A stretch of 64,000 nt of DNA from an uncultured Candidatus Binatia bacterium (GTDB taxonomy: Bacteria; Desulfobacterota; Binatia; UBA9968; JAJDTQ01). Location: contig OZ251459.1 of the NCBI GenBank assembly GCA_965242525.1, positions 1,984,001-2,048,000 on the forward strand, given 5' to 3'. The position numbers were made by a program, and so were the translations under genes. The notes beneath the pieces were generated by a model. The model was given only the letters and a program-made list of their open reading frames with translations. It was not told the DNA's origin and searched no databases. Shown here one piece after another: positions 20,703-62,076 of this stretch (position 1 is its first letter; each line of letters begins with the position of its first letter).

Positions 20703-20704
20703 GG

Positions 20705-21115: not shown

Positions 21116-21142
21116 GAGCCTCCTGCCACGTCCCGCCTCGGG

Positions 21143-27450: not shown

Positions 27451-30400
27451 ATGGCGGCAACGGACCAAAAGCTGACCGCAGCGGTGGAGACCTATTTTGC
27501 CGACCTGAGGCGGGTGCATGCCTCGGGCGGGGCCACCGGGGAGCGATCCAGCTACGGGCCGCTGGCGAACCTGCTGAACGCCGCGGGCGCGGCCCTCAAA
27601 CCCAAGGTGTTCTGCGTCCAGGAGTTGGCCGACCAGGGCGCGGGCCATCCCGACTTCGGCCTCTACGCGGCAAGGCAGGTCCAGCGGGGCCAACCGCGAG
27701 AGGGGCAGACGCCGGAGCGCGGCGTAGTGGAAGTGAAGGCCGCGGACGACGACGCTTGGCTCACCGCGGCAGGCGGTCAGGTAAGCCGCTATTGGGACCG
27801 CTACCGGCTGGTGCTGGTGACCAACACCCGCGATTTCGTGCTGATGGGCGAAGACGCGGCAGGCCATCCGGCGAAGCTCGAAACCTTCCGTCTGGCAGAC
27901 GGCGCGGACGACTTCCGGCGCAAGCTGGAGAAGCCCCGAGCCTTTGCCCGGGAAGTCGGCGCGGGCTTGGGCGAATACCTGTGCCGGGCGCTGTCGCACC
28001 GGGCTGCGTTGGCCGAACCCAAGGACTTGGCGTGGCTGCTGGCCTCCTATGCCCGGGATGGCTTGGCCCGCGTGGAGGCCGCGGGCGACGCGCTGTCGTT
28101 GGAGTTGGTGCGCAAGGCGCTGGAAGAGGCGTTGGGCGTCCGCTTTGAGGGAGAGCGGGGGACGCGCTTCTTCCGTTCGACCCTGGTGCAGACGCTCTTC
28201 TACGGCGTCTTCTCCGCCTGGGTGCTGTGGGCAAGGGTCGGCAGTCCGAACGTCCCTGCCAACGTCTCCCCTGCCAACGCCCCCCCTGGGAACGCGGGCG
28301 TCCCGCCCGCCTCTTTCCACTGGCGCGAAGCGGTCTGGCACCTGCGCGCGCCGGTGCTCCGAGCGTTGTTCCAGCAACTATCCGACCCCGGCCGCCTGCA
28401 ACCGCTGGGCTTGGTGGAAGTCCTGGACTGGACCGCCGCCGCACTGGACCGGGTGGACCACGCGGCCTTCTTCTCCCGCTTCCACGAAGGCGAGGCCGTG
28501 CCCTACTTCTACGAGCCCTTCCTCGAAGCCTTCGACCCCGAACTGCGCAAGCAACTGGGCGTCTGGTACACCCCTTCCGAAGTGGTGCGCTACATGGTGG
28601 CCCGGGTGGACCGGGCCCTGAAGGACGACCTGGGCATCCCGGAAGGGCTGGCTGCGGAGAACGTCTATGTGCTGGACCCGTGCTGCGGCACCGGGGCCTA
28701 CCTGGCAGAGGTCTTGCGCCGCATCGCCTCCAACCTGGAAGGGCAGGGATTGGGAGCGTTGGCCGGGGCGCGGGTGAAGCAGGCGGCCACCGAGCGGGTG
28801 TTCGGCTTCGAGATCATGCCCGCTCCCTTCGTGGTGGCTCACCTGCAAGTGGGACTGACCATGCAGGACTTGGACGCGCCCCTGGCGGATGACGGCGTGG
28901 AACGGCCCGGCGTCTTCCTCACCAACGCTCTCACCGGCTGGGAGCCGCACACCATCAAGCCCCTGCCCTTCCCGGAACTGGAGGAGGAACGGGACCGTGC
29001 GGAGCGGGTGAAGCAGGAGACGCCCATCCTGGTGATCCTGGGCAACCCGCCCTACAACGGCTTTGCCGGCATGGCAGTGGACGAGGAGCGGGAACTGTCG
29101 GAGTCCTACCGAAGGACGAAGCGGGTACGGCGACCGGATGGACAGGGGTTGAACGACCTGTACGTGCGCTTCTTCCGCATGGCGGAACGACGCATTGCGG
29201 AGAAGACCGGCCGGGGCGTGGTGTGCTTCATCTCCAACTACTCGTGGCTCGACGGCCTGTCGTTCACGGGGATGCGGGAACGCTACCTGGAAGCCTTCGA
29301 CGCGGTGCGCATCGACTGCCTGAACGGTGACAAGTACAAGACCGGGAAGGTAGCGCCGGACGGGACGCCGGACCCGAGCATCTTTTCGACGGAAGGGGAC
29401 CCGGTGGGCATACAGGTGGGGACGGCGATAGCGACGCTGGTGCGCAAGGCGGACCATGCGCCGGCGGAAGCGGTGGGTTTCCGCCATCTGTGGGGTCAGG
29501 GGAAGCGGGAGGAGTTGCTGGAAACCGCGGAAGCGGAGCCGGGCGCGGTGTATGCCGAGGTGTCGCCGCTCCTGCCGCTGGGCCTGCCGTTCGTGCAAAC
29601 GGCGGTGAGCGGGGATTGGTTCGATTGGCCGGCGTTGCCCGACCTGTTTCCGGTGTCGTTCCCGGGGGTGCAGACAAAGCGGGACTCGTTCCTGATCGAC
29701 ATTGACCTCGACCGCCTCAAAGCGCGGATTTCTGACTACTTCAACGGGGACCTGAGCCATGAAGAAATCGCCCGGCGATACCCCGGTGCGATGAAAAGCT
29801 CGTCAGGTTTTGTCGTACGCGACGCCCGTGCGGTGCGAGAGGCGCTGCTCGCCCGCGGCGGCCCGAACGAGGACGGCTTCATTCGCTTCGCCTACCGGCC
29901 GTTCGATAACCGGTGGCTGTATTGGGAGTCGGGACATGGCCTGCTTGGCCGTCCTGTACCCGACTACCGGCCTCATGTGTTCCAAGGGAACGAATGGCTG
30001 GTGGCACAGCAGAAACCGCGTCGGGAATGGTCGCCACCACAAGTGCTCTCGCATATTGGCTGCCTCGATCTCATGGACCGCGGTGCAACATGCATTCCCG
30101 CATGGCTCCGTGACGACAGCGAAGATAGCGGCCGCCGCCCCAATCTTTCAGGCGTGGCACAACGCTACCTCAAACGCCTCGACCTTGGGGTCGAGGACCT
30201 ATTCCACCACGTACTCGCCGTGCTTCACGATCCTGCGTACCGGGAGGCCAACACCGAGGTGCTCCGCATGGAATGGCCTCGCATCCCGCTCCCCCGCTGG
30301 TCCGCTCTCGGGAACGCAAGCGTCTCGACAGAATCCGAACAAGGCTCCGTATCCCCGGACAGAGAGACCACTGAAGCGACGGAAATACTCGCCCGATCGG

Positions 30401-30867
30401 CCGCCCGTGGCCGCCAACTGGCGGCTCTGCTCGACCCCGATACGCCGGTCCCCGGGGTAACCACGGGCAGACTGCGCTCGGAGATAGCCGCCATCGCCGT
30501 TCCTGCCACCACGGACGGGCACAACATGACCGGTGACGACTTCGCGTTGACCGCCGGTTGGGGCCACTATGGAACGGGCGGCGCGGTCATGCCCGGCCAG
30601 GGTCTCGTCGAAGAACGCGCCGCTCTCGGCAATGCCTCCCGAACCATTGGCGAAACGACCTTCGACGTGTACTTGAACGGCCGCACCTTTTGGAAAAACG
30701 TTCCGGCCGCGGTCTGGGGCTACGAGCTCGGCGGCTACCAAGTCCTCAAGAAATGGCTCTCTTACCGCGAACGCGACATCCTCGACCGCCCACTACGACC
30801 GGAGGAGGTCCAGCACTTCACAGATACCGCAAGGCGCATCGCGGCGCTATTGATGGAGTCTGGCTGA
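27451..30867 (+). CDS. Single-polypeptide Type IIG / ISP-like restriction-modification enzyme (N6-adenine MTase)
   Basis: N-terminal PDFG...VVEVK nuclease motif, YFYEPFL...GVWYTP, motif I LDPCCGTG, motif IV GNPPY, Type_ISP_C-like tail (AYRPFDNRW, EWPRIP, GGYQVLKKWL); no helicase domain. Confidence 0.85.
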   Translation: MAATDQKLTAAVETYFADLRRVHASGGATGERSSYGPLANLLNAAGAALKPKVFCVQELADQGAGHPDFGLYAARQVQRGQPREGQTPERGVVEVKAADDDAWLTAAGGQVSRYWDRYRLVLVTNTRDFVLMGEDAAGHPAKLETFRLADGADDFRRKLEKPRAFAREVGAGLGEYLCRALSHRAALAEPKDLAWLLASYARDGLARVEAAGDALSLELVRKALEEALGVRFEGERGTRFFRSTLVQTLFYGVFSAWVLWARVGSPNVPANVSPANAPPGNAGVPPASFHWREAVWHLRAPVLRALFQQLSDPGRLQPLGLVEVLDWTAAALDRVDHAAFFSRFHEGEAVPYFYEPFLEAFDPELRKQLGVWYTPSEVVRYMVARVDRALKDDLGIPEGLAAENVYVLDPCCGTGAYLAEVLRRIASNLEGQGLGALAGARVKQAATERVFGFEIMPAPFVVAHLQVGLTMQDLDAPLADDGVERPGVFLTNALTGWEPHTIKPLPFPELEEERDRAERVKQETPILVILGNPPYNGFAGMAVDEERELSESYRRTKRVRRPDGQGLNDLYVRFFRMAERRIAEKTGRGVVCFISNYSWLDGLSFTGMRERYLEAFDAVRIDCLNGDKYKTGKVAPDGTPDPSIFSTEGDPVGIQVGTAIATLVRKADHAPAEAVGFRHLWGQGKREELLETAEAEPGAVYAEVSPLLPLGLPFVQTAVSGDWFDWPALPDLFPVSFPGVQTKRDSFLIDIDLDRLKARISDYFNGDLSHEEIARRYPGAMKSSSGFVVRDARAVREALLARGGPNEDGFIRFAYRPFDNRWLYWESGHGLLGRPVPDYRPHVFQGNEWLVAQQKPRREWSPPQVLSHIGCLDLMDRGATCIPAWLRDDSEDSGRRPNLSGVAQRYLKRLDLGVEDLFHHVLAVLHDPAYREANTEVLRMEWPRIPLPRWSALGNASVSTESEQGSVSPDRETTEATEILARSAARGRQLAALLDPDTPVPGVTTGRLRSEIAAIAVPATTDGHNMTGDDFALTAGWGHYGTGGAVMPGQGLVEERAALGNASRTIGETTFDVYLNGRTFWKNVPAAVWGYELGGYQVLKKWLSYRERDILDRPLRPEEVQHFTDTARRIAALLMESG

Positions 30868-30896
30868 AGCGTGAAATCCTGAAGATCCGTGACTTC

Positions 30897-33023
30897 TTAC
30901 CGTTTGAGCCAGTCGTCGATCTGACGACGATCCTCGCGCTCCTCGCTAGGTGTGTACACCGACCATAGGTCACCATATAGCGACTCGAGGTGACCTGCCG
31001 TCGCCGAATCCGGCTCCTCTGTGCTAGCCACTAGCGACAGTAACTTCAATGCCAAGATTTGATCGGTACGGTTACGCACCTTTGGAGGAAACGCGAGGAT
31101 CGCCATGGCTGTGTGTTCCGCCTCCTTGACCACATCTAGCATAAGCCATAATCGACCCCAACATCGTAATGCTTCCAAATCGACCTGCCTCCCATCGTCG
31201 TAACGCTCCGCCGCGATGCGGGCAAATTCACTCGCTATCACCTCGTCGCAATATGGATATTTCTTGTGTTTGCGATCATTCTTGAGTTTACTCTGGTCAT
31301 ATAGCCCCCATAAGGTACAAGCTTCAACCAAAGGATCACGTGCCTGCTTCAACAACCACGCTTCGCTAGGCTCGCCGAACTCTATGACCAAACGAGCAGC
31401 ATATTCCGCTACAACTGAGGTTTCGGAATGCCTATGGAGGTACTGCCCAGCAAAGCGAAGGTGAGCCCACAGCTTCTCGGCGAGCGTGCGAACCGACTCT
31501 GGGGTTGCCGCGCGGCCGAGATCCTTCATGGGTTCGATCGCGTGGAATGCGATGAGGAACCAGTGTTTCGTAGCCCGATCGGTGGCGATAAACTTCTTGT
31601 AATCCTCCTCCGCGTCCCACACACTCAGCGGCAACGCTCGGCACCGCTCCGAGACCCAAGTCGGCAGATCGAGGTCTTCCCACGACAATGCAAGTGTGAA
31701 GCCGAGGCTGCGCAACCACGCACGGTCCTCCCAGTCATTCCAATTCAGAAACATATTGCCACGTTCCAAGTGCTCGAACATCTGGCTATGTGCATCGAAA
31801 CTCCTTCGAGCTATCTCGACAGCCCGCGCTGGCTCTGCAGAACGTATCTCACGAGCAATATCGGCCAAATGCCGCGTCCAAGTCGGTCGTCGTGCCTGGC
31901 ATAATCCAGCATTGAGTTCAGCGAGTAAATCGTCAGACCACGACAGGCGAACGAGTCGCGCAAGCACCTCTGTACAGGCCTTTTCAAGCTGCTTGACTCG
32001 GCATGGCATCTCACCATCCTCACTCTGATGTAGCATACGGGGGGCATAGCTGAGCAACTCACCAATCCAGCGCGCACATATATTTGCTTTCAGAGCAGCC
32101 AGCCGCTTAGCCAGATCGGTAAGGAGGCTAGCGGCTGCGGTATTGAGATCGTCTTCCGCGGGGCATAATTCAGTCCTCTGTATCTGTTGAGCAGCGTTTC
32201 CGCGATCAAGCAGCCGGATTTCTTCGTCCAATCTGTTGACGGTGTTCAGTGTATGTACAATCGCCAGCGCAACGAGAGCATCGCACGAATCTTTGGTAAC
32301 CCACAGTAGTGTCTCACGGTGGTTTAGACGCCTCATCGAAACGAGTCTGCGATGAGTCGCCCGCGCTTGCATCACTGGATGATCTAGTCTTTCGATCATG
32401 GATTTGAATTGATCGGGCCGCAATTCCACCACGAGTTCTATCAGGTGAGCCGTTGCACGATGCAGCGCCATATGGACGAGATCAAAGCCATGACTGTCGA
32501 GTTGCTGGAAGATCTCCAATGTTCCTTTGCTCGAAGTTATAGCGCCCTTTGGGATCTTAGCATTGGCAGAATTAACCCCTGAAATACGAGATGCGTCAAG
32601 AATCTGATCTCCACCACAGAGTTTCTTCAGTATATCAAGAGTGTGATCCACGAACGAGTCGATTTCCTCGGAGGACCAGCTAGACCGAATGATGTGTACA
32701 GCCGAGTCGGTATCGATCGAACCGACGGCCCAGATTGCCCTTTCGTCGCGGTTGCCCCGAACTCCATCCACAATTAAGGTTGCGACTGACTCGCTCATTT
32801 CAGACTTGAGCCATCGTTGCTTTCCGTCGGACTCGAACCATCCGAGAATCTCATTGATAACTCGACTTGGATCTCTCGAGGAGAAGTAGTGTGTGACGAT
32901 TGGCTCGATCAGTTCATATGTTGATCTGCCCTTCAGAGGCGATTCACCTGAACCGAAGATCCGCCAAGTAACGGCCTTCAAGTCATCGTAAATGGAGGGT
33001 TCGAGTGAAAGGTTTCTGGTCAT
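30897..33023 (-). CDS. Hypothetical protein, predicted largely alpha-helical
   Basis: 708-codon ORF in lower-GC DNA; TAATG stop/start coupling with the upstream gene; no recognised motif. Confidence 0.75.
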   Translation of the reverse strand: MTRNLSLEPSIYDDLKAVTWRIFGSGESPLKGRSTYELIEPIVTHYFSSRDPSRVINEILGWFESDGKQRWLKSEMSESVATLIVDGVRGNRDERAIWAVGSIDTDSAVHIIRSSWSSEEIDSFVDHTLDILKKLCGGDQILDASRISGVNSANAKIPKGAITSSKGTLEIFQQLDSHGFDLVHMALHRATAHLIELVVELRPDQFKSMIERLDHPVMQARATHRRLVSMRRLNHRETLLWVTKDSCDALVALAIVHTLNTVNRLDEEIRLLDRGNAAQQIQRTELCPAEDDLNTAAASLLTDLAKRLAALKANICARWIGELLSYAPRMLHQSEDGEMPCRVKQLEKACTEVLARLVRLSWSDDLLAELNAGLCQARRPTWTRHLADIAREIRSAEPARAVEIARRSFDAHSQMFEHLERGNMFLNWNDWEDRAWLRSLGFTLALSWEDLDLPTWVSERCRALPLSVWDAEEDYKKFIATDRATKHWFLIAFHAIEPMKDLGRAATPESVRTLAEKLWAHLRFAGQYLHRHSETSVVAEYAARLVIEFGEPSEAWLLKQARDPLVEACTLWGLYDQSKLKNDRKHKKYPYCDEVIASEFARIAAERYDDGRQVDLEALRCWGRLWLMLDVVKEAEHTAMAILAFPPKVRNRTDQILALKLLSLVASTEEPDSATAGHLESLYGDLWSVYTPSEEREDRRQIDDWLKR

Positions 33024-34741
33024 TATGTGACCTCTTCAATGAGAAATTCGGTGTTCTCAGAGCCAATTTTCATTGACCATAGCCGTTCGGCGTCAGCGCG
33101 ATACACGTCGTACAGCAGCCTGACGAAGGTGACGCCGTCGGCATGCCAGCCGTTGATAGAATGGGTGATCAGAATCTCTTGTTTCGGCGTTATCAAGTAA
33201 CGATCGTGATGTCCGGTCGTGCGACCAGGGTGCTTGGAGATTATTCGTCGTACTCTGACATGGGCTGTAATCTCCCTGGGATAATCCGACCACCAAAGGG
33301 TCGGCTTGCCTTCCTCTTCTCCTTGTCTTTGACACAGGATCAGTAAGGGAGCGCCGGTAGTGGACGCAAACAGATCAAGACATAGCTTGTGTACTTCGTT
33401 CCCCTTCAGTTGCCCCTTGGAGCAAGGAAAATAGGGGTCAACGAGATAGTTCGGTGCCTTTTGGTCAGAATCTTGACGCAGAATATCTATAAAATACTGG
33501 AAGGCGTCAACGACCTCTGTTGGTTGGAAGCGCCTGAAATTCCCTTCCCGACGCGCGGCGACCTCCCGTTCCCAGAGTCGATGTTCAAGCCCTCGTTGCC
33601 GTATCTCCTTGTCGATTTCGGCGTTCTCGTTATCGGAGCGTACGTTAAACTTGGAGATGGCGCCGGCTGGCTTGACCTTGTGAATCAAAGATTTCCGGCG
33701 GTTACGGAGATGCAATGTCGAGGTGGAATCATACATAAATTGGACGGAAATCTCCATGATCAGAAACGCCTCCATCAAATCAATACACTGTCCATCTGCA
33801 GCACGAAAAATCGCAAAACCTATGTGATCGACCTCAGATTCCAGATTTAACACATGATGCTGGGACGTGAGAAGAAGCTCGCGTCGGAGCACCTCATCTC
33901 CACTGTGGCTGGCCCAGACGGTAGCGCGATAGGCTTCTGATAGCAGATTCTCTGAATCCACATGGAGCCTCAACGTTCGGCCGTAACCTGCTGCCAGATC
34001 GCAGGTGATTGCATCCTCAGCTCCCGCAATCATCAGGTTGCCGACCCGATCCGAGCGACGGTCGAGTGGGAAGCCTAGACGTGAAAGTCGAAGCGACAAG
34101 TCTGCCGAAGACGATCCAAGCATCTCTCGCCAGCTATTGCGCGGCCCCTCCGCGAAGCTCCAGTACTCGACTACCTCAGCGCTGTGCTTCGAGAACGGGC
34201 TGCGCAACGAGGCTTCGGCCAACGGACGCTCATCTCGGTAAACCCAGTGGCGGCGAGGAGCGAGGTTCAAGGCGTAAGCAATTTCGATGCCATCGATCTT
34301 CAATTTACCTGAGTCCAGTATCTGGCCAATCAATGCCTCACAGCGTTCAAATGGTGCGTCGCAAGAAAATAGCCGAAGTCTGTCCCCAAGGTCGTCACAA
34401 GACCAACTCTCGTCCGGTTCACTCGCCCAGGGCCCTAACGCATCCGCCCGTCGGTGACGTATGAGCGTGAACAGGTTTGGCGGTTTTGCCGCCGCATCAT
34501 CCCAAACCAGAACCGTCATGCGAGCCATCCGGCCCTTCCTTGCATCCATCGTCACCGAGGCACGGGTTAGGGCATCAACAGGGAGCCCCCGCTCACACGC
34601 CCAACGGACTGCCTCCGCGTGGTCCACGTACACGCTACGCCCATCCTTCTGTGCTATGAGATGTTTCCGATGAATATGCTGTCGGACGTAGGTCTCGCTC
34701 TTGTCCACAGCACGGGCCAACTCTGCGATTGTGAGATCCAA
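33023..34741 (-). CDS. HTH + VPA1262-like protein with C-terminal PLD/MIT_C-like HDR motif
   Basis: TTG start after a GGAGG RBS; N-terminal excisionase/MerR-like HTH (LTIAELARAVDKSETYVRQHI); C-terminal LVDPYF...HHDRYLI...THSING. Family assignment recalled from motifs, not searched. Confidence 0.6.
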   Translation of the reverse strand: MDLTIAELARAVDKSETYVRQHIHRKHLIAQKDGRSVYVDHAEAVRWACERGLPVDALTRASVTMDARKGRMARMTVLVWDDAAAKPPNLFTLIRHRRADALGPWASEPDESWSCDDLGDRLRLFSCDAPFERCEALIGQILDSGKLKIDGIEIAYALNLAPRRHWVYRDERPLAEASLRSPFSKHSAEVVEYWSFAEGPRNSWREMLGSSSADLSLRLSRLGFPLDRRSDRVGNLMIAGAEDAITCDLAAGYGRTLRLHVDSENLLSEAYRATVWASHSGDEVLRRELLLTSQHHVLNLESEVDHIGFAIFRAADGQCIDLMEAFLIMEISVQFMYDSTSTLHLRNRRKSLIHKVKPAGAISKFNVRSDNENAEIDKEIRQRGLEHRLWEREVAARREGNFRRFQPTEVVDAFQYFIDILRQDSDQKAPNYLVDPYFPCSKGQLKGNEVHKLCLDLFASTTGAPLLILCQRQGEEEGKPTLWWSDYPREITAHVRVRRIISKHPGRTTGHHDRYLITPKQEILITHSINGWHADGVTFVRLLYDVYRADAERLWSMKIGSENTEFLIEEVT

Positions 34742-40357: not shown

Positions 40358-40503
40358 GCCGCCCACACCAGCAGACCCATAACGAACGGGGACCGCTGTC
40401 CAGCCTTTCCTTGACACGCCATCGGCAACGGCCTAGGATTCGCAGGACGCACGCATCGACCGCCGACGTTCCATCCACCGCGGACTTTCACGGAGGAAGA
40501 AAA

Positions 40504-41628
40504 ATGGCCAAACAAGGCTTCAAGGCAATGGATTCGGACATGCACGTCTTCGAGCCCGCGGACCTGTGGGAGCGCTACATGGACCCGGAGTTCCGGGACC
40601 GGGCCCCCAAGGGGCTGCAACGGGACTTCCGGGACCTGGGCGTGGAGGTGGAGGGGAAGATCCTCCCCGTTCCCCGGCGGCCCGAGAACCCGGCGCTCCG
40701 GGACTACCGCCTGACCACCCTCAAGGAGAAGTACGGCGACGTGGCCGAGCGCGGTTTCGACGGCGTGAGCCAAGTCATGGCCATGGACAAGGAGGGGCTC
40801 GACCTGGCCTTCCTCTTCCCCACCCGCGGGTTGTTCGTCCTGGGCATCGACGGCCTCGACCCCGAGCTCGCCGCGGCCATATCCCGGGCCTACAACGACT
40901 GGCTCCACGACTTCGCGCAAGCCGCGCCGGACCGGATGCTCTGCGTCGCCATGGTGCCGCCCCAGAACGTGGAAGCAGCGGTGGCGGAGACCCGGCGCAC
41001 CGTAGGCGAGATGGGTTTCCGGGGCATATTCATGAGGCCCAACCAGACCAACGGGCGCTGCTGGAGCGACCCCTACTACGATCCGCTATGGGACGTGTGC
41101 CAGAGCCTCGACGTGCCGGTGGGCTTCCACGAAGCCGGGCGGGTCTATCAGCCGCAACCCGCCATCTCCCAGTTCATCCCCACGTTCTCCATGTTCAACA
41201 CCCTGAGCTTTCCGCTGGCCAACATGTTCGCCTGCTCGGACATGATCTACGGCGGCGTGATGGAACGCTTCCCCAGGCTGCGCGTCGCGTTCCTGGAAGG
41301 GAACTGCTCGTGGCTCCCCTGGCTCCTGTGGCGCATGGGCGACTACATGGAGTCGGTGGGGAAGGCGGAGTACCCGGACTTGACGCTCGAACCCCTGGAG
41401 TACTTCCAGCGCCAGTGTTTCGGCGCGGTCGAATGCGACGAGGTCACCGCAAAGCACATGCCCGAGTACGGCCTGGAGGACAACCTGGTGTTCTCCACCG
41501 ACTACCCGCACCTGGACGTCAAGTACCCCCACTCGCTGGACGCTTTCCTGGAGATGCCGTTCTCCAACGAGTCCAAGCGCAAGTACCTCTGGGACAACTG
41601 TGCGAGGCTGTACAACCTGGGGCAGTGA
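40504..41628 (+). CDS. Amidohydrolase_2 family protein
   Basis: DSDMHVFEP, AYNDWL, VGFHE, LEGNCSWLP, STDYPH, DNCARLY. Confidence 0.88.
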   Translation: MAKQGFKAMDSDMHVFEPADLWERYMDPEFRDRAPKGLQRDFRDLGVEVEGKILPVPRRPENPALRDYRLTTLKEKYGDVAERGFDGVSQVMAMDKEGLDLAFLFPTRGLFVLGIDGLDPELAAAISRAYNDWLHDFAQAAPDRMLCVAMVPPQNVEAAVAETRRTVGEMGFRGIFMRPNQTNGRCWSDPYYDPLWDVCQSLDVPVGFHEAGRVYQPQPAISQFIPTFSMFNTLSFPLANMFACSDMIYGGVMERFPRLRVAFLEGNCSWLPWLLWRMGDYMESVGKAEYPDLTLEPLEYFQRQCFGAVECDEVTAKHMPEYGLEDNLVFSTDYPHLDVKYPHSLDAFLEMPFSNESKRKYLWDNCARLYNLGQ

Positions 41629-41641
41629 CGCCGGGGTTTCC

Positions 41642-42766
41642 GTGCGGACATTCGAGCGACGGGGGATCGTCGAAGGGTTCTTCGGTCCCCCGTGGACCAC
41701 CGCCCACCGCGCCGCCATGTTCGCCTTCGGCGCGGCCCGGGGCATGAACACCTACCTCTACGCCCCCAAGGACGACCCGTACCACCGGGAGCTCTGGCGA
41801 CTGCCCTACCCGGAACCGGAGTGGCGCGAGCTCTGCCGCCTCATCGAGGCGGCCCAGGGTCAAGGCATCGACTTCGTCTATGGCTTCCACCCCGGCAAGG
41901 ACCTCCGCTTCACCGCCCCGGAACCCGTACAGGTCCTGCTCGACAAGGCCGCGAGGCTGTACGACCGGGGCGTGCGGACCTTTGCCGTGCTGTTCGACGA
42001 CATCCCGTCGCACCTCACCCACGCCGAGGACGTGCGCAAGTTCGACCGCAGCCTGGCCAGAGCTGAATCCCTCTGGCTCGAAACCGTGATGGAGCGGCAA
42101 CCCGCCCACTGGCGCGTAGAGTGGTGGTTCTGTCCCTCGTACTACACGGACGACCCGTTGCTGGCCCGGACCTTCGGCGCCTTCGAGTCCGGGTTCCTGG
42201 AGACCGTGGGACGGTGCCTGCCCGCTTCCGTGAGCTGCTTCTGGACCGGGCCGAAGGTGGTGCCCGGGAGCATCGACTTGGCCCACATGGAGGCGGTGGG
42301 CGAACGGGTCGGACACCGGCTGCTGCTCTGGGACAACTATCCGGTCAACGACCTCACCATGAGCGACGAGCTGCACATCGGACCGCTCACCGGCCGGGAC
42401 CCGCGGCTCCCGGAGCGGGTCCACGCGCACTTGGCCAACCCGCTGCTGCAGGAAGAACTCAGCTTCGTTCCCCTGGCCACGTGCTTCGACTATGCCCGGG
42501 ACCCGTCCGCATACGCGCCGGAGGCGAGCTGGGAGGCGGTCGTGGCCGAGCGCTTCGGCCCCGCCAACCTGGACCACTGGCGCGCCCTCAGACGGTTCTG
42601 CGAGAAGGACGCGGGCGCCGCGGCGACGACGGCGCTTTCGGAACCGGAGCGCGCCGCGCTCGAAGCGGCCCACGCCTACCTGCTGGCGCACAGGGACGAA
42701 CGGTGGGGCCGGGAGTTCGCCCCGTGGCAAACCCGGCTGGAGCTCCTGCTCCGGGGAGACCGGTGA
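41642..42766 (+). CDS. GH84 beta-N-acetylglucosaminidase (O-GlcNAcase-like), cytoplasmic
   Basis: RGIVEGFFGPPW, YLYAPKDDPYHR, catalytic LFDDI, WTGPKV, WDNYPVND; no signal peptide. Confidence 0.88.
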   Translation: MRTFERRGIVEGFFGPPWTTAHRAAMFAFGAARGMNTYLYAPKDDPYHRELWRLPYPEPEWRELCRLIEAAQGQGIDFVYGFHPGKDLRFTAPEPVQVLLDKAARLYDRGVRTFAVLFDDIPSHLTHAEDVRKFDRSLARAESLWLETVMERQPAHWRVEWWFCPSYYTDDPLLARTFGAFESGFLETVGRCLPASVSCFWTGPKVVPGSIDLAHMEAVGERVGHRLLLWDNYPVNDLTMSDELHIGPLTGRDPRLPERVHAHLANPLLQEELSFVPLATCFDYARDPSAYAPEASWEAVVAERFGPANLDHWRALRRFCEKDAGAAATTALSEPERAALEAAHAYLLAHRDERWGREFAPWQTRLELLLRGDR

Positions 42767-42918
42767 CGGGCCGCCGCGGCGCCGCGGGAGGGGCCGCCGG
42801 CGGACACCGGGCGGCCGCCGGGCAGGGATCCCCGCACCCCCTGCGAAGCGCCCCGGAAGACGCCTCGGCCGGGCGGACGGCCGCCGGGGGCCGGTCCCTG
42901 CGCCCCGCGGAGGAAGGA

Positions 42919-44211
42919 ATGCCGTCGGCCGACAACCTGCTGGACACCCTGCACGAAGTGCGGTCCCGAACCCTCGCCCTGGTGGAGGACCTCACGGACG
43001 AACAACTGATCGGCCCCAACCTCCCCATCGTCAACCCTCCGCTCTGGGAGATCGGCCACGTGGCCTGGTTCCACGAACGCTGGGCGCTCCGGCGCCTGCG
43101 CGGCCGCGACGCCATCCTCCCGCAAGGCGACGCCCTCTACAATTCTGCAACCGTCCCCCACGATTCCCGCTGGGACCTGGCGCTGCCGTCGCGGGAAGCG
43201 ACCCTCGACTACATGGCGCGCGTTCTCGATCGCATCTCGGAAGCACTGCCCGGCCGCGCGCCCGGACCGGAGGAAACCTACTTCCACCGACTGGGCGTCC
43301 TGCACGAAGACATGCACGCGGAGGCGCTGACCTACACGCGCCAGACCCTGGCCTACCCCGGGCCCTCGTTCCTCCCCCGCGGGCCGGCCTCGGCCGGCGG
43401 CCCCCACCCGGGCGACGCGGAGGTCCCCGGCGGCGAGTTCCTGCTCGGGGCAAGCCCGGACTCCCCCTTCGTCTTCGACAACGAGAAGTGGGGGCACCCG
43501 ATGACCGTGGCGCCCTACTGCATGGCCAAGGCGCCGGTGACCAACGCCGAGTTCGCCGCGTTCGTGGACGACCGGGGCTACGAGGATCCGCGCTGGTGGA
43601 GCGCCGCGGGCTGGGAGTGGCGCCGGACCGGAGGCGGACCCCATCCCGTGTACTGGCGTCGGGAGTCCCCCGGACGCTGGCTGGAGCGGACCTTCGACCG
43701 ATGGCTGCCGCTTGAGGGCCACCTCCCGGTGATCCACGTCAACTGGTACGAGGCCGAGGCATACTGCAACTGGGCCGGACGCCGGTTGCCCACCGAGGCC
43801 GAGTGGGAGATGGCCGCGGCGGTGGACCCCGCGGACCGAGCGGACCCGGAAGCGGCCAAGCGCCGTTTCCCGTGGGGCGGCGCGCCCCCCGACCCGGACC
43901 GCGGCAACCTCGACTGGGCCGGGGGCGGCCGGACGCCGGTGGACGCGCTTCCGGCCGGCGACAGCCCGGTGGGCTGCCGGCAGATGATCGGCAACGTGTG
44001 GGAGTGGACGGCCGACGTCTTCCACCCCTACCCCGGTTTCGTCCGGGACCCCTACGAGGAGTACTCCGAGCCCTGGTTCGGAGACCACCGGGTGCTGCGC
44101 GGCGGCTGCTGGACCACCCGCTCGCACCTCATCCGCAACACGTGGCGCAACTTCTACAAACCGGACCGCCGGGACGTCCTCGCCGGCTTCCGCACCTGCG
44201 CACGGCGATGA
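42919..44211 (+). CDS. senA: Selenoneine synthase SenA (EgtB-family DinB + FGE-sulfatase)
   Basis: PIVNPPLWEIGHVAWF and HEDMHAE iron ligands typical of the SenA clade; FDNEKW, RLPTEAEWE, GNVWEW, GFRTC. An in-frame GTG at 42763 overlaps the GH84 stop. Confidence 0.8.
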   Translation: MPSADNLLDTLHEVRSRTLALVEDLTDEQLIGPNLPIVNPPLWEIGHVAWFHERWALRRLRGRDAILPQGDALYNSATVPHDSRWDLALPSREATLDYMARVLDRISEALPGRAPGPEETYFHRLGVLHEDMHAEALTYTRQTLAYPGPSFLPRGPASAGGPHPGDAEVPGGEFLLGASPDSPFVFDNEKWGHPMTVAPYCMAKAPVTNAEFAAFVDDRGYEDPRWWSAAGWEWRRTGGGPHPVYWRRESPGRWLERTFDRWLPLEGHLPVIHVNWYEAEAYCNWAGRRLPTEAEWEMAAAVDPADRADPEAAKRRFPWGGAPPDPDRGNLDWAGGGRTPVDALPAGDSPVGCRQMIGNVWEWTADVFHPYPGFVRDPYEEYSEPWFGDHRVLRGGCWTTRSHLIRNTWRNFYKPDRRDVLAGFRTCARR

Positions 44212-44216
44212 CCGGA

Positions 44217-44445
44217 GGAACCCCTGAACAATCGAGGCATGGAAAGCGCGTCCTTCGACTTCGCTTCGCTACGCTCAGGACGAACGGGGGTAATCGTTCA
44301 GGGTTTCATGAAGGGAGAGTCTGGACAATTGGGCAGAGGGCATGAGTGCGCCCTTCGACTCCGCTTCGCTACGCTCAGGGCGAACGGGGGTGGAGGGTCA
44401 GGGCAAGGGAATCCACTCTCCATGTCTCGATTGTCCAGCGGTTCC
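44217..44445 (-). mobile_element. Two tandem IS5-like MITEs each carrying the 42-bp REP
   Basis: 44217-44308 (GGAACCCCTGAACAATCG...CGTTCAGGGTTTCA) and 44314-44445 (GGAGAGTCTGGACAAT...ATTGTCCAGCGGTTCC); the second is flanked by TGAAG on both sides. Confidence 0.72.
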
Positions 44446-44511
44446 TGAAGGTCTTGGAGTAGGCGCCATTCGACAAGATGGAAACCAAGACGAAGCGACT
44501 GTAAACAAGGA

Positions 44512-44814
44512 GGCTCTTCCGGCTTTCGTGTGGGTAAGGCAGGAAGGAAAGGGAAGCGACATCACCGCGGAGGCTCACCCCGTCATTCCCGCGAAAGCAT
44601 GTCCTCGCGGAAGCGGGGGCGGGAATCCATCCGCTTTCCTCGCTCTCGTTGTACAAACCTCTCATACAGGGCGCCATGGGGTTTGCTCGCAAGGTCTGGA
44701 TTCCCGCTTTCGCGGGAATGACAAGACGGGGCTTTCGCGGGTATGACGGGATGAAGCTTTCGCGGGTATGACGGGATGGGGAGTGTCGCAATCCACACGA
44801 ATTCCTGAAGCGCC
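44512..44814 (+). mobile_element. ISL3-derived MITE with 8-bp TSD AACAAGGA, filled with CGTC REPs
   Basis: TIRs GGCTCTTCCGGCTTTCGTGTGGGT / ATCCACACGAATTCCTGAAGCGCC; AACAAGGA at 44504-44511 and 44815-44822. Confidence 0.85.
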
Positions 44815-44881
44815 AACAAGGATGGCTCCCGCGCTATCATACGTCCTTATGGTGGCAGCCACTCCAAGATCTTCAATTTCC

Positions 44882-44985
44882 CCGTTCATCCTGAGCGTAA
44901 CGTAGCGAAATCCTCCGTTCGTCCTGAGCGTAGCGAAGCGAAGTCGAAGGACGCGCTCATGCTCCCTCGATCGTCCAGGGGTTCC
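44882..44985 (+). repeat. Partial plus full 42-bp REP and an IS5-like MITE end
   Basis: CCGTTCATCCTGAGCG partial copy, full copy at 44915-44956, then CGATCGTCCAGGGGTTCC. Confidence 0.7.
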
Positions 44986-45093
44986 CGGGATGCCGCGAGG
45001 GAAACGACAGGGTCACAAATGAAGGAACCGAGGGCCGTCGCCGGCCCTCGCAAGGAAAGGACCGCGGAATTGGCAAACGACTCGCTCGAACGC

Positions 45094-46053
45094 ATGGCCG
45101 CCATCGCCCTGGTGACCCCCGCGGGACCCACCCGGCGCACGGGCAACCGCATCTCGGGGGGCCGGTGGGGGCGGATCCTCAGGGCATCGGGCCATCGGGT
45201 CCGGACCCTGGACCGCTACGACAGTGAACACTGCGACCTGCTCATCGCGCTGCACGCCCGCCGCAGCCACGAGTCCGTCCTGCGGTTCCGCCAACTCCAC
45301 CCCCACAGGCCCGTCATCGTGGTGCTGACCGGGACGGACCTGTACCACGACATCCGCGTCAACGAGGACGCCCAGGAGTCCCTCCGGCTGGCGAGCCGCC
45401 TGGTGGTGCTGCAGCAACAGGGGCTCCGGGAACTCTCCCCTGCACTCCAGCGGAAGACCCGGGTCATCTACCAGTCGGCGTCGCCCTGCACCCCTCGCCC
45501 CGGAGACCGGCGCAGGGCCTTCACCGTATCGGTGGCGGGCCACATGCGGACCGAGAAGGACCCGTTCCGCACGGCCATGGCGGTGCGCGGGTTGCCGTCC
45601 TCGTCCCGGATCCGAGTGCTGCACATGGGCGCCGCCCTGAGCGAGGACATGGAGCGGCGCGCCCGGCGGGAGGAAGAGCGGAACCCGCGGTACCGCTGGC
45701 TGGGGGAATTGGCGCACTGGCAGGCGCGGCAGATGCTCGCCAAGGGCCACCTCCTGTCCATTACCTCGCGCATGGAGGGCAGCTCCAACGTCCTGTGCGA
45801 GGCCCTGGCCTCCGGGGTTCCGGTGGCTGCCTCGAAGATCCCGGGACTGGTGGGGACCCTGGGCGAAGACTACCCGGGGTACTTCGAACTCGGTGACACC
45901 GGAGGGCTGCGGCGGCTGTTGCTCAGGGCCGAAGGCGACCCGGAGTTCTACCGGAGCCTGACGCGGCATTGCGCCAAGGCCGCGCCGCTGGTGCTCCCCG
46001 AGCGCGAAGTCCAAGCCTGGCGGCGCCTGGTGGACGAGGTCGCCGCCGGCTGA
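45094..46053 (+). CDS. senB: Selenosugar synthase SenB (TIGR04348-type glycosyltransferase)
   Basis: IALVTPA...TGNRISGGRW, LIALHARRS, VVLTGTDLY, GHMRTEKDPF, SRMEGSSNVLCEA, GTLGEDYPGYF. Confidence 0.85.
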   Translation: MAAIALVTPAGPTRRTGNRISGGRWGRILRASGHRVRTLDRYDSEHCDLLIALHARRSHESVLRFRQLHPHRPVIVVLTGTDLYHDIRVNEDAQESLRLASRLVVLQQQGLRELSPALQRKTRVIYQSASPCTPRPGDRRRAFTVSVAGHMRTEKDPFRTAMAVRGLPSSSRIRVLHMGAALSEDMERRARREEERNPRYRWLGELAHWQARQMLAKGHLLSITSRMEGSSNVLCEALASGVPVAASKIPGLVGTLGEDYPGYFELGDTGGLRRLLLRAEGDPEFYRSLTRHCAKAAPLVLPEREVQAWRRLVDEVAAG

Positions 46054-55316: not shown

Positions 55317-58300
55317 ATGAGACCCTCGCCTCTCCTTCAACCCTCGCCCTTCCTTCGCGCCGCGGTCCTCGCAGCCGGACTCCTGCTGGTTCCGTCCGCG
55401 GCCTGGAGCAAATCGGCCAAGGAAGTGTTCCAGCAAGCCGCCCCCTCGGTAGTCGTGGTGCTGGCCCTGGGCAGGAACGGCGCCACCACCGGCCAAGGCA
55501 GCGGCGTGGTGGTGGGCCGCACGGAAGTGGTCACCAACTGCCACGTGGTGGAAGACGCCGCGGGCATCGCGGTGCGCCAAGCCTCGGACCACACGGGCGA
55601 AACGACTTGGCGCATGGAGGCGTCCGTGCTGGCCCGGAACGACGAACGCGACCTGTGCCTGTTGTACGTGGACCAGTTGTCGGACCCGCCGGCACCCTCC
55701 ACGGCGCGCCTCGGTTCGGCCAAGACCTTGTCAGTGGGCGAGGAAGTCTATGCCATCGGCGCCCCCCGGGGCCTGGAACTGTCCCTGTCCCGCGGCATCG
55801 TGTCCCAACTGCGCGGCGTCCTGGGCAAGCGCCGTGGCCCCTTGATCCAGACCGACGCCGCCATCTCCCCCGGCTCGTCCGGCGGCGGCCTCTTCAACGC
55901 CAACGGCGAACTCGTCGGGATCACCACCTTCAAGCGGAGAGGCGAGAACCTGAACTTCGCCCTTCCCGCGGATTGGGTACGGGAGTTGCGGGAGCAGGGC
56001 CGGTCGGCGTTGGAGGCGGCGAAACTGCAGGCGGAGTGTGAGGAGAATCCGGATTTCGACTGTCTTGTGGCGCTGGCTGTGATGGATGCGGGGATGGAGG
56101 ATGCTGGTTTGCGAAGGCTTACCTTGTGGAACATCGCGGAGGCGCTACGTAACATCACAGAAATGCAAACCAAAGCAGGAAACGTGACTGATGCACTTCA
56201 AACCGCGCAGAAAATCGACGATGCTGGTTTCCGTGCAACGGTATTGAAAGGTATCAAAATCGCACACAGAGACATTCTAGCCGCACAAGCGAAAGCGGGA
56301 AACGTGACTGGTGCACTCAATACTGCGCAAAAAATCGACGACGCCGAGTGGCGTACAGAGATATTGGCTAAGATCGCAGTCACACAAGCGAAAGCGGGAA
56401 ACGTAGCTGACGCATTCGAAACCACGCAGACAATCGACGACCCGGAGTGGCATGCACGAACATTGGGTAGCATCGCATACGCACAAGTCGAAGCGGGAAA
56501 CGTGCCTGCTGCACTCAATACTGCGCAAAAAATCGATCGTGCAAAGGAGCGTGCAGCGATATTGACACTCATTGCACTCGCACAAGTCGAAGCAGGAGAA
56601 TCACAAGCGGCCAGAAAGACGCTAGCTAATGTAATCAATACCGCACAGACAATGGACGACCCGGAGTGGCGTGCACAGACATGGAGCTTCATCGCAGCTA
56701 TACAAATGGAGATGGGAAACGTGCCTGGTGCGCTCAATGCCGCGCAAAAAATCGACGACGCCGAGTCGGGTGCATATCTATTGAGCGAAATCGCAGTCAC
56801 ACAAGCGAAAGCGGGAAACGTGGCTGACGCACTCAAAACCATGCAGAGAATCAGCGACGCGGAGTGGCGTGCAACGGCATTAAGAGCCATTGCAGCCGCA
56901 CAAGCGAAAGCGAGAGAACCACAAGCAGCCAGAAAGACGTTGGCTAATGCAATCAATGCCGCACAGACAATCGACAATGCGTACAGGCGTGCAAGGGCAT
57001 TGGAAGATATTAAAACCGCACACAGAGATATTGCAACTGCACAAGCGAAAGCGGGAAACGTGGCTGACGCACTCGAAACCACGCAGAGAATCGACGACCC
57101 AGACTGGCGTGCACGAACGTTGACCGGCATCGCAGCCGCACAAATGGAAACGGGAGAGCGGCGATCAGCCAGAAATACATTCGCTGAGGCAATCAATGCC
57201 GCACAGACAATCGACAAGGCGTGGGCCCGTTCGTCGAGATTGACAGAAGTTGCAGCCGCACAAGCAAAAGCAGGGGAGCAGCAAGCAGCCAGAAATACAT
57301 TCACTAAGGCAATCAATGCCACGCAGAGAATCGACGACCCGGAGGGGCGTGCAGGAACATTGACTGGCATCGCAGCCGCACAAGCGAAAGCGGGAGAGTG
57401 GCAAGCGGCCAGCAATACATTCACTGAGGCAATCAATGTCGCACAGACAATCGACAATGCGTACCTGCGTGCATTGGGATTGAAGAAGATCGCAACTGCA
57501 CAAGCGAAAGCAGGAAACGTGGCTGACGCACTCGAAACCACGCAGAGAATCCACGACCCGGACTCACGTGCACAAACGTTGACCGGCATCGCAGCCGCAC
57601 AAATGGAAACGGGAGAGCGGCGATCAGCCAGCAATACATTCGCTGAGGCAATCAATGCCGCACAGACAATCGACAAGGCGTGGGCCCGTTCGTCGAGATT
57701 GACAGAAGTCGCAGCCGCACAAGCAAAAGCAGGGGAGCAGCAAGCAGCCAGAAATACATTCACTGAGGCAATCAATGCCACGCAGAGAATCGACGACCCG
57801 GAGCGGCGTGCACAAACATTGACTGGCATCGCAGCCGCACAAATGGAAACGGGAGAGCGGCGATCAGCCAGAAATACATTCACTGAGGCAATCAATGCCG
57901 CACAGAGAATCCATAGTGCAAAGCCCCGCTCGTCGAGATTGGAGGAAATCGCAACCGCACAAGCGAAAGCGGGAGAGCAGCAAGCGGCCAATCGGACGTT
58001 GACTGCTGCTTTCGATGCGGCACAGTATCTCAATACGCCCTACGATCGCCTTACGACCTCTGCAAGAATCTTGTCCACCCAGGCGAAAACAGGAAATGTC
58101 AATGACGCGATGGAAGCCTTCAAGAAGACATTCAAGGCCCGGGAGACACATCTTTCGGAAGCGGCGTTGAGGCTGGATCGCTCAGATCGAGTCCTGGTCC
58201 AGCGTGGTCTCGCGTCGTTGGGCAAGGACGTGGGGGCTGCCGACGGAGTTTTCGGACAACGGACCCGGGCGGCGGTGCGTTCGTGGCAAGTGGATGCAGG

Positions 58301-58448
58301 GTTCAAGGCCACCGGCCACCTGACACGAGAGCAGGCGGCCAGACTGATCGCCGCCGGTCGTCGTGCTGCCGCCGCGGCGACGGAAACACAACGGCTGAAG
58401 GAGTTTTGCGCTGAAGTCCCACAGTCCGAGCTTTGCCGTGACCTTTGA
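55317..58448 (+). CDS. Secreted trypsin-like (S1C) protease with TPR-like repeats and C-terminal peptidoglycan-binding domain
   Basis: Signal peptide; triad motifs TNCHV, DLCLL, ISPGSSGG; many IAxAQAKAG helical repeats; VQRGLASLG...ADGVFGQRTRAAVRSWQ...TG (PG_binding_1). Confidence 0.85.
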   Translation: MRPSPLLQPSPFLRAAVLAAGLLLVPSAAWSKSAKEVFQQAAPSVVVVLALGRNGATTGQGSGVVVGRTEVVTNCHVVEDAAGIAVRQASDHTGETTWRMEASVLARNDERDLCLLYVDQLSDPPAPSTARLGSAKTLSVGEEVYAIGAPRGLELSLSRGIVSQLRGVLGKRRGPLIQTDAAISPGSSGGGLFNANGELVGITTFKRRGENLNFALPADWVRELREQGRSALEAAKLQAECEENPDFDCLVALAVMDAGMEDAGLRRLTLWNIAEALRNITEMQTKAGNVTDALQTAQKIDDAGFRATVLKGIKIAHRDILAAQAKAGNVTGALNTAQKIDDAEWRTEILAKIAVTQAKAGNVADAFETTQTIDDPEWHARTLGSIAYAQVEAGNVPAALNTAQKIDRAKERAAILTLIALAQVEAGESQAARKTLANVINTAQTMDDPEWRAQTWSFIAAIQMEMGNVPGALNAAQKIDDAESGAYLLSEIAVTQAKAGNVADALKTMQRISDAEWRATALRAIAAAQAKAREPQAARKTLANAINAAQTIDNAYRRARALEDIKTAHRDIATAQAKAGNVADALETTQRIDDPDWRARTLTGIAAAQMETGERRSARNTFAEAINAAQTIDKAWARSSRLTEVAAAQAKAGEQQAARNTFTKAINATQRIDDPEGRAGTLTGIAAAQAKAGEWQAASNTFTEAINVAQTIDNAYLRALGLKKIATAQAKAGNVADALETTQRIHDPDSRAQTLTGIAAAQMETGERRSASNTFAEAINAAQTIDKAWARSSRLTEVAAAQAKAGEQQAARNTFTEAINATQRIDDPERRAQTLTGIAAAQMETGERRSARNTFTEAINAAQRIHSAKPRSSRLEEIATAQAKAGEQQAANRTLTAAFDAAQYLNTPYDRLTTSARILSTQAKTGNVNDAMEAFKKTFKARETHLSEAALRLDRSDRVLVQRGLASLGKDVGAADGVFGQRTRAAVRSWQVDAGFKATGHLTREQAARLIAAGRRAAAAATETQRLKEFCAEVPQSELCRDL
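57035..57845 (+). repeat. Near-identical 459-bp tandem duplication in the repeat region
   Basis: TGACCGGCATCGCAGCCGCACAAATGGAAACG occurs at 57121 and 57580 (offset 459 bp = 153 codons), with long flanking identity. Confidence 0.8.
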
Positions 58449-58590
58449 GCACCCTCGAAGGCACGGCGGAAAAGCGCGCTTGTCCTTCGACTTGGCCGAA
58501 GGCGCCGTGCTCGTACTTAGGCTGCCTTCCTTCACCTTGAGTTTCGCTTTGCAGAGGAACCCCTGAGCATCGGGGGAACCGGCCATCCCC

Positions 58591-59088
58591 ATGTCCTCAT
58601 CCGCCAACTTGAAGCACGTCACCATCTACACGGACGGAGCCTGCCTCGGGAACCCGGGGCCGGGGGGCTACGGCGTCGTCCTCCTATACAACGGCAAACG
58701 GCGGGAGATCAGCCACGGCTACCGCAAGACCACCAACAACCGCATGGAGATCATGGCCGTCTTGGCGGGCCTCCGGTCCCTGAAGGAGCCGTGCCGGGTG
58801 ACCCTTTACAGCGACTCCCGGTACGTGGTGGACGCCATGTCCAAGGGATGGGCCAAGCGGTGGCGGGAACGGAACTGGAAGAGGAACGCCAGGGAGTCCG
58901 CCCGGAACCCCGACCTATGGGCCGAGTTGCTCGACCTGTCCGACCGGCACCGGGTGGACTACCGCTGGATCAAGGGACACGCGGGCGATCCGCTAAACGA
59001 GCGTTGCGACGATCTCGCAGTGGCCGCCGCCCATGACCCGGATAGGAGCGTCGATGCAGCCTACGAGAACCAAACGGGGATGTCCTGA
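58591..59088 (+). CDS. rnhA: Ribonuclease HI
   Basis: YTDGACLGNPGPGG, TTNNRME, SDSRYV, WIKGHAG, NERCD. Confidence 0.96.
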   Translation: MSSSANLKHVTIYTDGACLGNPGPGGYGVVLLYNGKRREISHGYRKTTNNRMEIMAVLAGLRSLKEPCRVTLYSDSRYVVDAMSKGWAKRWRERNWKRNARESARNPDLWAELLDLSDRHRVDYRWIKGHAGDPLNERCDDLAVAAAHDPDRSVDAAYENQTGMS

Positions 59089-59118
59089 TTCACGGGAAGG
59101 CGTCGACACGAATTTTCC

Positions 59119-59316
59119 GGCTCTTCCGGCTTTTGTGTGGGTAAGGTAGGAGGGGAAAGGTGCGACAGGGTTCAAGGACCGACCATGGAGGAAGCGATGC
59201 CAGACCGGGAGTTGTACGCGAGGCTACTGGGGATCGAAGCGCCGTGGCGAGTGGAGGGAGTGGAGTTGAGGCTGGAAGAGGGAAAGGTGGTGGTACAGGT
59301 TGGACACGGGAGGTAG
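59119..59316 (+). mobile_element. ISL3-family IS remnant (left end plus 39-codon transposase stub)
   Basis: GGCTCTTCCGGCTTTTGTGTGGGTAAG end; ORF 59197-59316 MPDRELYARLLGIEAPWRVEGVELRLEEGKVVVQVGH resembles ISL3 transposase N-termini. Confidence 0.75.
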
Positions 59317-59371
59317 GGAGTAAAGTTATCCAGAGTGTGACCACGAGGCATCAGTCGATATCTCCGCTATT

Positions 59372-61966: not shown

Positions 61967-62076
61967 TGAACACCTTCCTTCTTAGTCGATCCCTATAGAT
62001 GGGACGTCAATGCTAGACTGGCGTGACGGGGCGGCGGACCGTAAGGCCGGCCGAGGCTAGCCGTACACCATTCTCA

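Follow-up and report, generated by a model that had tools for sequence, protein, structure and literature searches.

A GH84 glycoside hydrolase clade tied to selenoneine genes, with a possible role in releasing selenoneine from its sugar conjugate

We identified a gene for a glycoside hydrolase of family GH84 directly upstream of the selenoneine genes senA and senB in an uncultured Candidatus Binatia bacterium, and found that it belongs to a clade tied to the sen genes across many genomes. The DNA analyzed is a 64,000-nucleotide stretch of contig OZ251459.1 (assembly GCA_965242525.1, positions 1,984,001 to 2,048,000 of the forward strand), which we call the window; coordinates below are window positions unless another contig is named, and L and G numbers label individual loci and genomes. 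From its genomic context, we consider it likely that the GH84 is a member of the selenoneine pathway. Our proposal for its reaction is more tentative: it may be a Se-glycosidase that releases selenoneine from hercynyl-SeGlcNAc, the conjugate of hercynine with a selenium-bearing N-acetylglucosamine (GlcNAc). The locus combines a sen cluster of known kind with a putative accessory enzyme.

A GH84 gene stands with senA and senB

The GH84 gene, at 41642-42766 on the forward strand, is predicted to encode a cytoplasmic beta-N-acetylglucosaminidase of 374 residues. Its product matched PF07555 over profile positions 1-291 of 295, with an E-value of 3.3e-82 and 276.6 bits against a cut-off of 25. Downstream on the same strand lie senA, for selenoneine synthase (42919-44211, 430 residues from ATG 42919; NF041186, 514.4 bits, cut-off 420), and senB, for selenosugar synthase (45094-46053, 319 residues from ATG 45094; TIGR04348, 390.5 bits, cut-off 300). 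These scores bear out the gene order given in a preliminary description of this DNA, which had been made from the letters alone. SenA and SenB are both above their NCBIfam equivalog cut-offs, and the EgtB model scored SenA at 341, against its own cut-off of 360.

The other genes of the pathway are found at a distance. We located egtD, for the histidine N-alpha-methyltransferase that makes hercynine, on the forward strand at 10173-11066 (TIGR03438, 293.2 and 291.1 bits, cut-off 290.9); the match is part of an open reading frame (ORF) at 9495-11096, 31 kb upstream of the GH84 gene, and is missing from the preliminary description. That description had seen no selD or senC in the window, and none of the three matches that the SelD model TIGR00476 gave in the genome falls within the window. 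The genuine selD, whose location that description had left as a check, is at C1:3604834-3605757 (locus L001), about 1.58 Mb from the window. No other SelD of the genome scores above the cut-off, and this one carries an in-frame TGA in the motif KAAGUAAKL, as in a selenocysteine-containing selenophosphate synthetase. This single SelD must supply both selenoprotein and selenoneine synthesis. Judged by gene content, the genome encodes a complete predicted route to selenoneine (hercynine, selenophosphate, SenB and SenA) without a dedicated senC. A second suggestion, that ergothioneine might be made via a thiosugar, gained no support: no EgtB other than SenA itself exceeded the cut-off in this genome, and the thioglucose adduct is reported to remain a stable sulfoxide in the preprint on the pathway (bioRxiv 10.1101/2022.04.13.486033).

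The GH84 clade is kept beside the sen genes

We gathered 80 genome loci with GH84 relatives, 17 of them at least 54% identical to the window GH84 and 63 more distant. GH84, senA and senB stand in a row on one strand at 12 of the 17 close loci. Contig ends truncate three others (L012, L015 and L020, with the rest of the L020 cluster on L093), and the last two, L013 and L016, have no sen gene nearby, SenA and SenB being encoded elsewhere in those genomes. Neither senA nor senB was found at the distant loci (0/63). Statements and tree rows for L016 rest on genome G444, which is flagged as unpublished.

A sample of 151 genomes from the same class gave a similar picture. The clade GH84 is present in 19 of them, and these make up the full set of genomes sampled from one order. 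SenB was found in 18 of these 19, and in the other (G380) GH84 and SenA lie where a contig ends; in 17, GH84 and SenB are encoded on the same strand of a single contig, no more than 4.1 kb apart. SenA scored over its cut-off in every tested genome with a GH84 of the clade or of its sister group. Additionally, metagenome contigs yielded 48 clade-type loci, some of which duplicate genome records (L306 and L011, for example). With at least 1500 nt of downstream sequence available, 20/26 have senA downstream; with at least 4500 nt upstream, 7/14 have egtD there. Many relatives have egtD 2-4 kb ahead of GH84, compared with 31 kb in the window genome.

At least three different gene orders keep the GH84 beside sen genes. 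Only the window's genus has the amidohydrolase and lysJ flanks, and some relatives carry inserts of 1-2.7 kb with glyoxalase-like and alpha/beta-hydrolase genes between GH84 and senA, as seen in one family. Two genomes (G338 and G396) keep a GH84-senB pair, with senA 1.4 Mb away or on another contig. We conclude that, among the genomes tested, this GH84 clade is found only in senA/senB genomes and is kept beside the sen genes, and that the linkage is more than chance. Co-occurrence with senAB had been set beforehand as a check on the idea, and it came out positive in the genomes, the class sample and the metagenome contigs; the preliminary description had held that orthologues unlinked to senAB elsewhere would speak against it, and we found them linked.

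Apparent transfer of GH84 into Burkholderiales

The 25 GH84s from sen genomes group as one clade (SH-aLRT 99, stem length 0.89) in a tree built from 88 sequences of the family. Clade GH84s also occur in beta-proteobacterial metagenome-assembled genomes (MAGs) or contigs, namely L013 and a group made up of L015, L170, L299 and L303, and these nest at two places inside the GH84 clade of the order. We examined this placement by a topology test on a 38-row LG+G4 tree. Forcing the GH84s of the order into one clade costs 42.3 log-likelihood units, with an approximately unbiased (AU) p-value of 0.034 that is to be taken with caution, as the group was named after inspection of the tree. The SenBs of the same Burkholderiales fall in the Burkholderiales SenB clade, with MAGs in which no GH84 was found. 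Because the GH84 and SenB trees differ in placement, GH84 appears to have moved alone into Burkholderiales hosts that already had sen genes. On L299, as on L300, the clade GH84 lies 2.3 kb from a native SenB (373.5 bits). There, at 4699-9143, senB and an ArsR-rhodanese gene face a fatty-acid-hydroxylase-like gene, small ORFs and GH84; no senA was found in the 17 kb of L299 examined.

A conserved sugar pocket and a probably remodeled catalytic face

The predicted structure of the GH84 (pLDDT 95.2) is a (beta/alpha)8 barrel followed by a helical bundle. With its first barrel strand already starting at residue 6, the protein leaves no space for a signal peptide and is predicted to be cytoplasmic. 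Numbered from GTG 41642, the catalytic pair D119-D120 is in the motif LFDDIP, just behind barrel strand 4, which the model places at 113-117. The pair is invariant in 33/33 aligned sequences and aligns with D119/N120 of the D120N mutant in 5DIY and with the DD of CpOGA. The intact pair and the missing signal peptide, both noted at the outset, are upheld by these comparisons. Titles or entry codes identify the 50 Protein Data Bank matches listed by Foldseek as GH84 structures. The top match is 5diy_B (E 8.5e-34, TM 0.90, about 32% identity); 5DIY is also the nearest solved relative by sequence (E 7.6e-66). The beta-N-acetylglucosaminidase equivalog NF041654 gave 202.7 bits, under its cut-off of 1000, with only the catalytic part of the 732-position model matched.

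Invariant positions in the 33-row alignment are K43, D119, D120, Y168, W230, D231, N232, P234, V235, N236, D237 and N266, and Y233 is conserved at 90% or more in the clade comparison. K43, Y168, W230, N232, D237 and N266 align with conserved CpOGA residues and make up the GlcNAc (-1) subsite.

To find residues specific to the clade, we compared 25 members with 60 other GH84s. Position 14 is Phe in 25/25 members and Tyr in 59/60 of the others. The clade has also fixed F82, H83, F90, F185, E142 and S166, together with the tryptophans W61, W145, W157, W161, W162, W313 and W355, and it carries a 9-residue helix inserted after CPSYY / Tyr168 (helix 172-178 in the model). Placed by the secondary structure of the model, F14, F82, H83, W161, W162, S166 and helix 172-178 coincide with or directly follow barrel strands 1, 3 and 5, which would put them on the catalytic face of the barrel. 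According to the structural literature, the Tyr replaced by F14 (Tyr69 of human O-GlcNAcase (OGA), Tyr189 of CpOGA) stacks on the glycopeptide backbone in both enzymes and may hydrogen-bond the catalytic Asp. In the same sources, the human Y69F enzyme stays active; therefore, F14 alone is weak evidence against peptide substrates.

The genome has only one GH84, and the GT41 O-GlcNAc transferase (OGT) model PF13844 had no match at E <= 1e-5 in this 98.96%-complete genome, while control genomes matched. Because the sugar pocket is kept, the catalytic face is apparently remodeled with F14 among the changes, and no GT41 OGT was found, we argue for a GlcNAc-specific hydrolase with a probably altered aglycone site, rather than a protein O-GlcNAcase.

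These data bear on a rival explanation, that the enzyme is an ordinary cytoplasmic beta-GlcNAcase, for turnover of GlcNAc conjugates or removal of protein O-GlcNAc, whose place beside sen reflects shared ancestry in one order. The synteny is indeed largely within one order, but the flanks vary while the GH84-sen adjacency persists, and an apparent separate move took GH84 into sen-bearing Burkholderiales, near the native senB on L299. Its nearest solved relatives, 5DIY and CpOGA, are O-GlcNAcases, and the activity of human Y69F makes peptide substrates compatible with F14; against this stand the lack of a detectable GT41 OGT, the status of the enzyme as sole GH84 of the genome and the finding that, by Pfam and NCBIfam, the operon has no GlcNAc-catabolic genes. 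Insert-type GH84s are core in Marinobacter regardless of senB, yet the clade itself is found only in senA/senB genomes. On balance, we regard an ordinary GlcNAcase as unlikely.

Possible roles in selenoneine synthesis

The 2022 description of selenoneine biosynthesis has three enzymes and a spontaneous elimination, and the question is the fate of the selenoxide and of the sugar in a reducing cell. The preprint of that work (bioRxiv 10.1101/2022.04.13.486033) describes hercynyl-SeGlcNAc selenoxide, the product of SenA, as eliminating spontaneously, reports that the reduced selenoether appears under dithiothreitol, and considers an EgtE-like step unnecessary; no glycosidase or hydrolase term was found in its text. 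Later papers repeat the scheme. The preliminary description, which had given the pathway as lacking a glycosidase, agrees with it. Our literature search found no paper with both "selenoneine" and "GH84", although supplementary gene-neighborhood tables of the 2022 and 2024 papers might list this GH84. It also found nothing linking SenB or selenosugars with a GlcNAcase, and no natural S- or Se-glycoside substrate for GH84.

We propose that the GH84 would be an accessory enzyme, transcribed with senA and, in relatives, with senB. SenB would form SeGlcNAc, which SenA would join to hercynine to give hercynyl-SeGlcNAc selenoxide. Part of this selenoxide could become the stable selenoether in the reducing cytoplasm, and the selenoether would be unable to eliminate. 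GH84 would then hydrolyze its anomeric C1-Se bond, and possibly that of the selenoxide too, by the substrate-assisted mechanism of the family. The products would be GlcNAc and selenoneine (or its selenenic acid), so that a dead end is rescued and a reusable, intact sugar is returned. The selenoether is the most sensible substrate because its leaving group should be excellent, and a GH84 could, on chemical grounds, plausibly cleave a Se-GlcNAc bond. Macauley, Stubbs and Vocadlo reportedly described in JACS in 2005, to go by the title, that O-GlcNAcase cleaves thioglycosides without general acid catalysis. We hold release of selenoneine from hercynyl-SeGlcNAc to be a real possibility, short of an even chance. 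A further-reaching version, in which the clade is the first natural selenoglycosidase, acts on the C1-Se bond of hercynyl-SeGlcNAc and makes the last selenoneine step enzyme-catalyzed, avoiding loss of flux to the selenoether, is somewhat more doubtful. A complex prediction for SenB and GH84 gave no support (score 0.00, mark 0.32), which is evidence neither way.

Several findings weigh against this proposal. The pathway works in vitro without a glycosidase, according to the preprint (bioRxiv 10.1101/2022.04.13.486033). No GH84 lies within 9 kb of 41/43 senB loci of other lineages, spread over many phyla, and the clade GH84 is missing from six SenB-positive genomes that belong to the same class but to other orders. 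We conclude from these three points that GH84 is dispensable for selenoneine synthesis. The synteny comes mostly from one order and so represents few independent events. One genome (G442) has GH84, senA and senB at three separate loci, and no sen gene lies within 8 kb of the GH84 on L303 or L304. Co-occurrence in Burkholderiales is weak evidence of little power because SenB is common and GH84 rare there: among 201 genomes, SenB was over the cut-off in 75 (one of them the unpublished G666) and GH84 was present in 2, both SenB-positive and one being the center genome itself. In one long-read MAG (L247, the same as L026, 9010-10135), the coding sequence of the clade GH84 shifts from one reading frame to another near residue 190, which reflects either an assembly error or a decaying gene. 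As for the chemistry, alkyl S-GlcNAc has been described as non-hydrolyzable by human OGA, and Cys-S-GlcNAc is not hydrolyzed.

The 9-residue insert marks a wider set of enzymes. It is shared by a sister group, with SenB in 5/5 genomes (one partial), and by a group of roughly 350 amino acids from Marinobacter, Caulobacteraceae and others. We considered that all insert-type GH84s might be sen-linked, since at first SenB was found in 14/22 of their genomes and 0/20 controls; Marinobacter ruled this out. Of 151 Marinobacter genomes sampled, 149 have a GH84 and 131 SenB, and the insert is not sen-specific because the Marinobacter GH84 is present regardless of SenB. The related enzyme in 20/20 SenB-negative Marinobacter genomes, and the 8/22 insert-type genomes that show no SenB, also count against the proposal. 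Only the narrower clade is tied to sen.

The split clusters bring in the main rival. GH84 stays with senB, not senA, in G338, G396 and L299, which suits free SeGlcNAc as the substrate at least as well as the conjugate. A hydrolase of SeGlcNAc (or of the reduced diselenide) would yield GlcNAc and selenide; it would control the pool of reactive selenosugar and return selenium to SelD when hercynine or SenA is limiting. Such a surplus can arise, as an ovsA mutant is reported to accumulate SeGlcNAc. The clusters have no dedicated senC, and the sole SelD is a selenoprotein itself. The GH84-senB pairs (G338, G396 and L299/L300) fit this role, but co-transcription with senB would set up a futile cycle spending UDP-GlcNAc and selenophosphate. 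The aromatic changes near the catalytic face would be unneeded for a substrate without an aglycone, and senA is present in every tested genome of the clade. We consider a SeGlcNAc hydrolase unlikely, and its proposed control of the selenium supply equally so; as accounts of mechanism, an unrelated housekeeping role and salvage of the sugar by-product are weaker rivals still.

In the salvage reading, GH84 would hydrate 2-acetamidoglucal, the unsaturated sugar that the described Cope-type selenoxide elimination should leave, or convert other GlcNAc-derived by-products, to GlcNAc; it shares the pathway linkage, the accepted elimination route and the conserved GlcNAc-shaped -1 pocket, but GH84 enzymes have no enzymic nucleophile for glycal hydration, 2-acetamidoglucal was not found in our literature search, and N-acetyl-glycals are tight-binding hexosaminidase inhibitors and are not known to be substrates, all of which makes it improbable.

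To return to the GH84 as a pathway member, its linkage with senA/senB makes it a cloneable candidate for a missing in vivo step, whether release from the conjugate, control of the selenosugar pool or recycling of the sugar. If Se-glycosidic cleavage is true, it would be new enzymology for GH84 and a tool for higher selenoneine yields in engineered producers, and the horizontal spread into sen-bearing Burkholderiales would mark GH84 as a portable, yield-boosting module.

Gene boundaries and surroundings

The open frames of the three genes are 41600-42766 (GH84), 42121-44211 (senA) and 44959-46053 (senB), all on the forward strand. The GH84 start, GTG 41642, is 13 nt past the stop of an Amidohydro_2 gene. 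The preliminary description had pointed to an in-frame GTG at the GH84 stop: GTG 42763-42765 does overlap the TGA at 42764-42766 (GTGA) in the senA frame, but senA probably starts at ATG 42919 instead. We prefer ATG 42919 because a GGAGG that is conserved in L116 and L115, the two nearest relatives, lies 5 nt ahead of it, because position 2 of the SenA model fits there, and because eight relatives (L116, L091, L009, L010, L017, L019, L021 and L235) have an in-frame stop between the GH84 stop and the senA start. From ATG 42919, the GH84-senA distance is 152 nt; in relatives it ranges from overlap to about 300 nt. The senB start is most likely ATG 45094, as the TIGR04348 model begins at ORF residue 49.

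The senA-senB spacer (44212-45093) is 882 bp long, compared with 8-200 bp in close relatives, and holds copies of an interspersed repeat. Searching the window with the spacer by blastn gave matches of 78-100% identity near 6440, 12480, 17520, 22450, 27320, 35100, 40240, 49970 and 55240. The repeats are short (about 50-135 bp), interspersed and partly inverted, and they recur in at least nine further intergenic sites across the window. Those in the spacer may split the operon or regulate it.

Upstream of GH84, the Amidohydro_2 gene occupies 40504-41628 on the forward strand (PF04909, 117 bits), with its start inferred at ATG 40504; its relatives align from ORF residue 56-57. We saw this gene beside GH84 only in the window's own genus (L006-L008, L091, L110, L111, L115 and L116). 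A promoter-like site at 40411-40439, ahead of the gene, is a consensus match only.

A larger sen cluster occurs in one family (L011, L098, L099, L315, L317, L333 and, from the unpublished genome, L016). Divergent from GH84 are egtD, a desaturase-like membrane gene, LysE and a secreted FGE-sulfatase-like gene, whose 270-residue product is about 30-36% identical to the C-domain of SenA; between GH84 and senA are glyoxalase-like, NMT1-type binding-protein and alpha/beta-hydrolase genes. The extra genes may add further tailoring or export steps. In a sister-group genome, the SenB match G457:C84:17994-18923 has one in-frame TGA and adjoins two SenA-type genes (18946-20232 and 20348-21661). By sequence appearance, without profile annotation, the neighbors of Marinobacter and sister-group GH84s include a TRAP transporter, a macro domain and leuCD, and give no hint of function.

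Two parts of the window, 30000-34000 and 56000-62000, have a lower G+C content (0.47-0.59, compared with about 0.68) and may be acquired islands. The AT skew is 0.39 at 56001-58000, and 56000-62000 codes for a 1061-residue trypsin-like/TPR/peptidoglycan-binding protein, an RNase H and a DEAD-type helicase. Public sequencing runs with 35-42% of the sampled words of 41642-46053 include five labeled as sponge metagenome, from two studies, which is no evidence of habitat.

Comparison with known systems

The closest described system is the senA-senB-senC cluster of Variovorax paradoxus (Kayrouz et al.; bioRxiv 10.1101/2022.04.13.486033). It has SenA and SenB equivalogs, EgtD and a selenophosphate synthetase in common with the window genome, whereas the window locus adds a GH84 before senA, has no senC in the cluster and relies on a distant SelD of the selenocysteine type.

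As an enzyme, the window GH84 shares its fold, Asp-Asp pair and sugar-pocket residues with the bacterial O-GlcNAcases of Thermobaculum terrenum (5DIY), Clostridium perfringens (NagJ/CpOGA) and Oceanicola (OgOGA). Like 5DIY, it is short and predicted to be cytoplasmic, with a catalytic barrel and a helical bundle. Unlike these enzymes, its clade has F14 for Tyr, the 9-residue helix, added tryptophans and the context of a small-molecule pathway, with no OGT found.

In function, the proposed reaction is analogous to the step of EgtC or EgtE in ergothioneine biosynthesis, which removes the chalcogen carrier after C-S or C-Se coupling and so liberates the thione or selone. The analogy is functional only, since an amidohydrolase and a PLP (pyridoxal phosphate) C-S lyase are unrelated to a glycoside hydrolase in fold and chemistry. 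The nearest chemical likeness is the reported action of human O-GlcNAcase on artificial aryl thioglycosides, in which a GH84 breaks a C1-chalcogen bond with a good leaving group.

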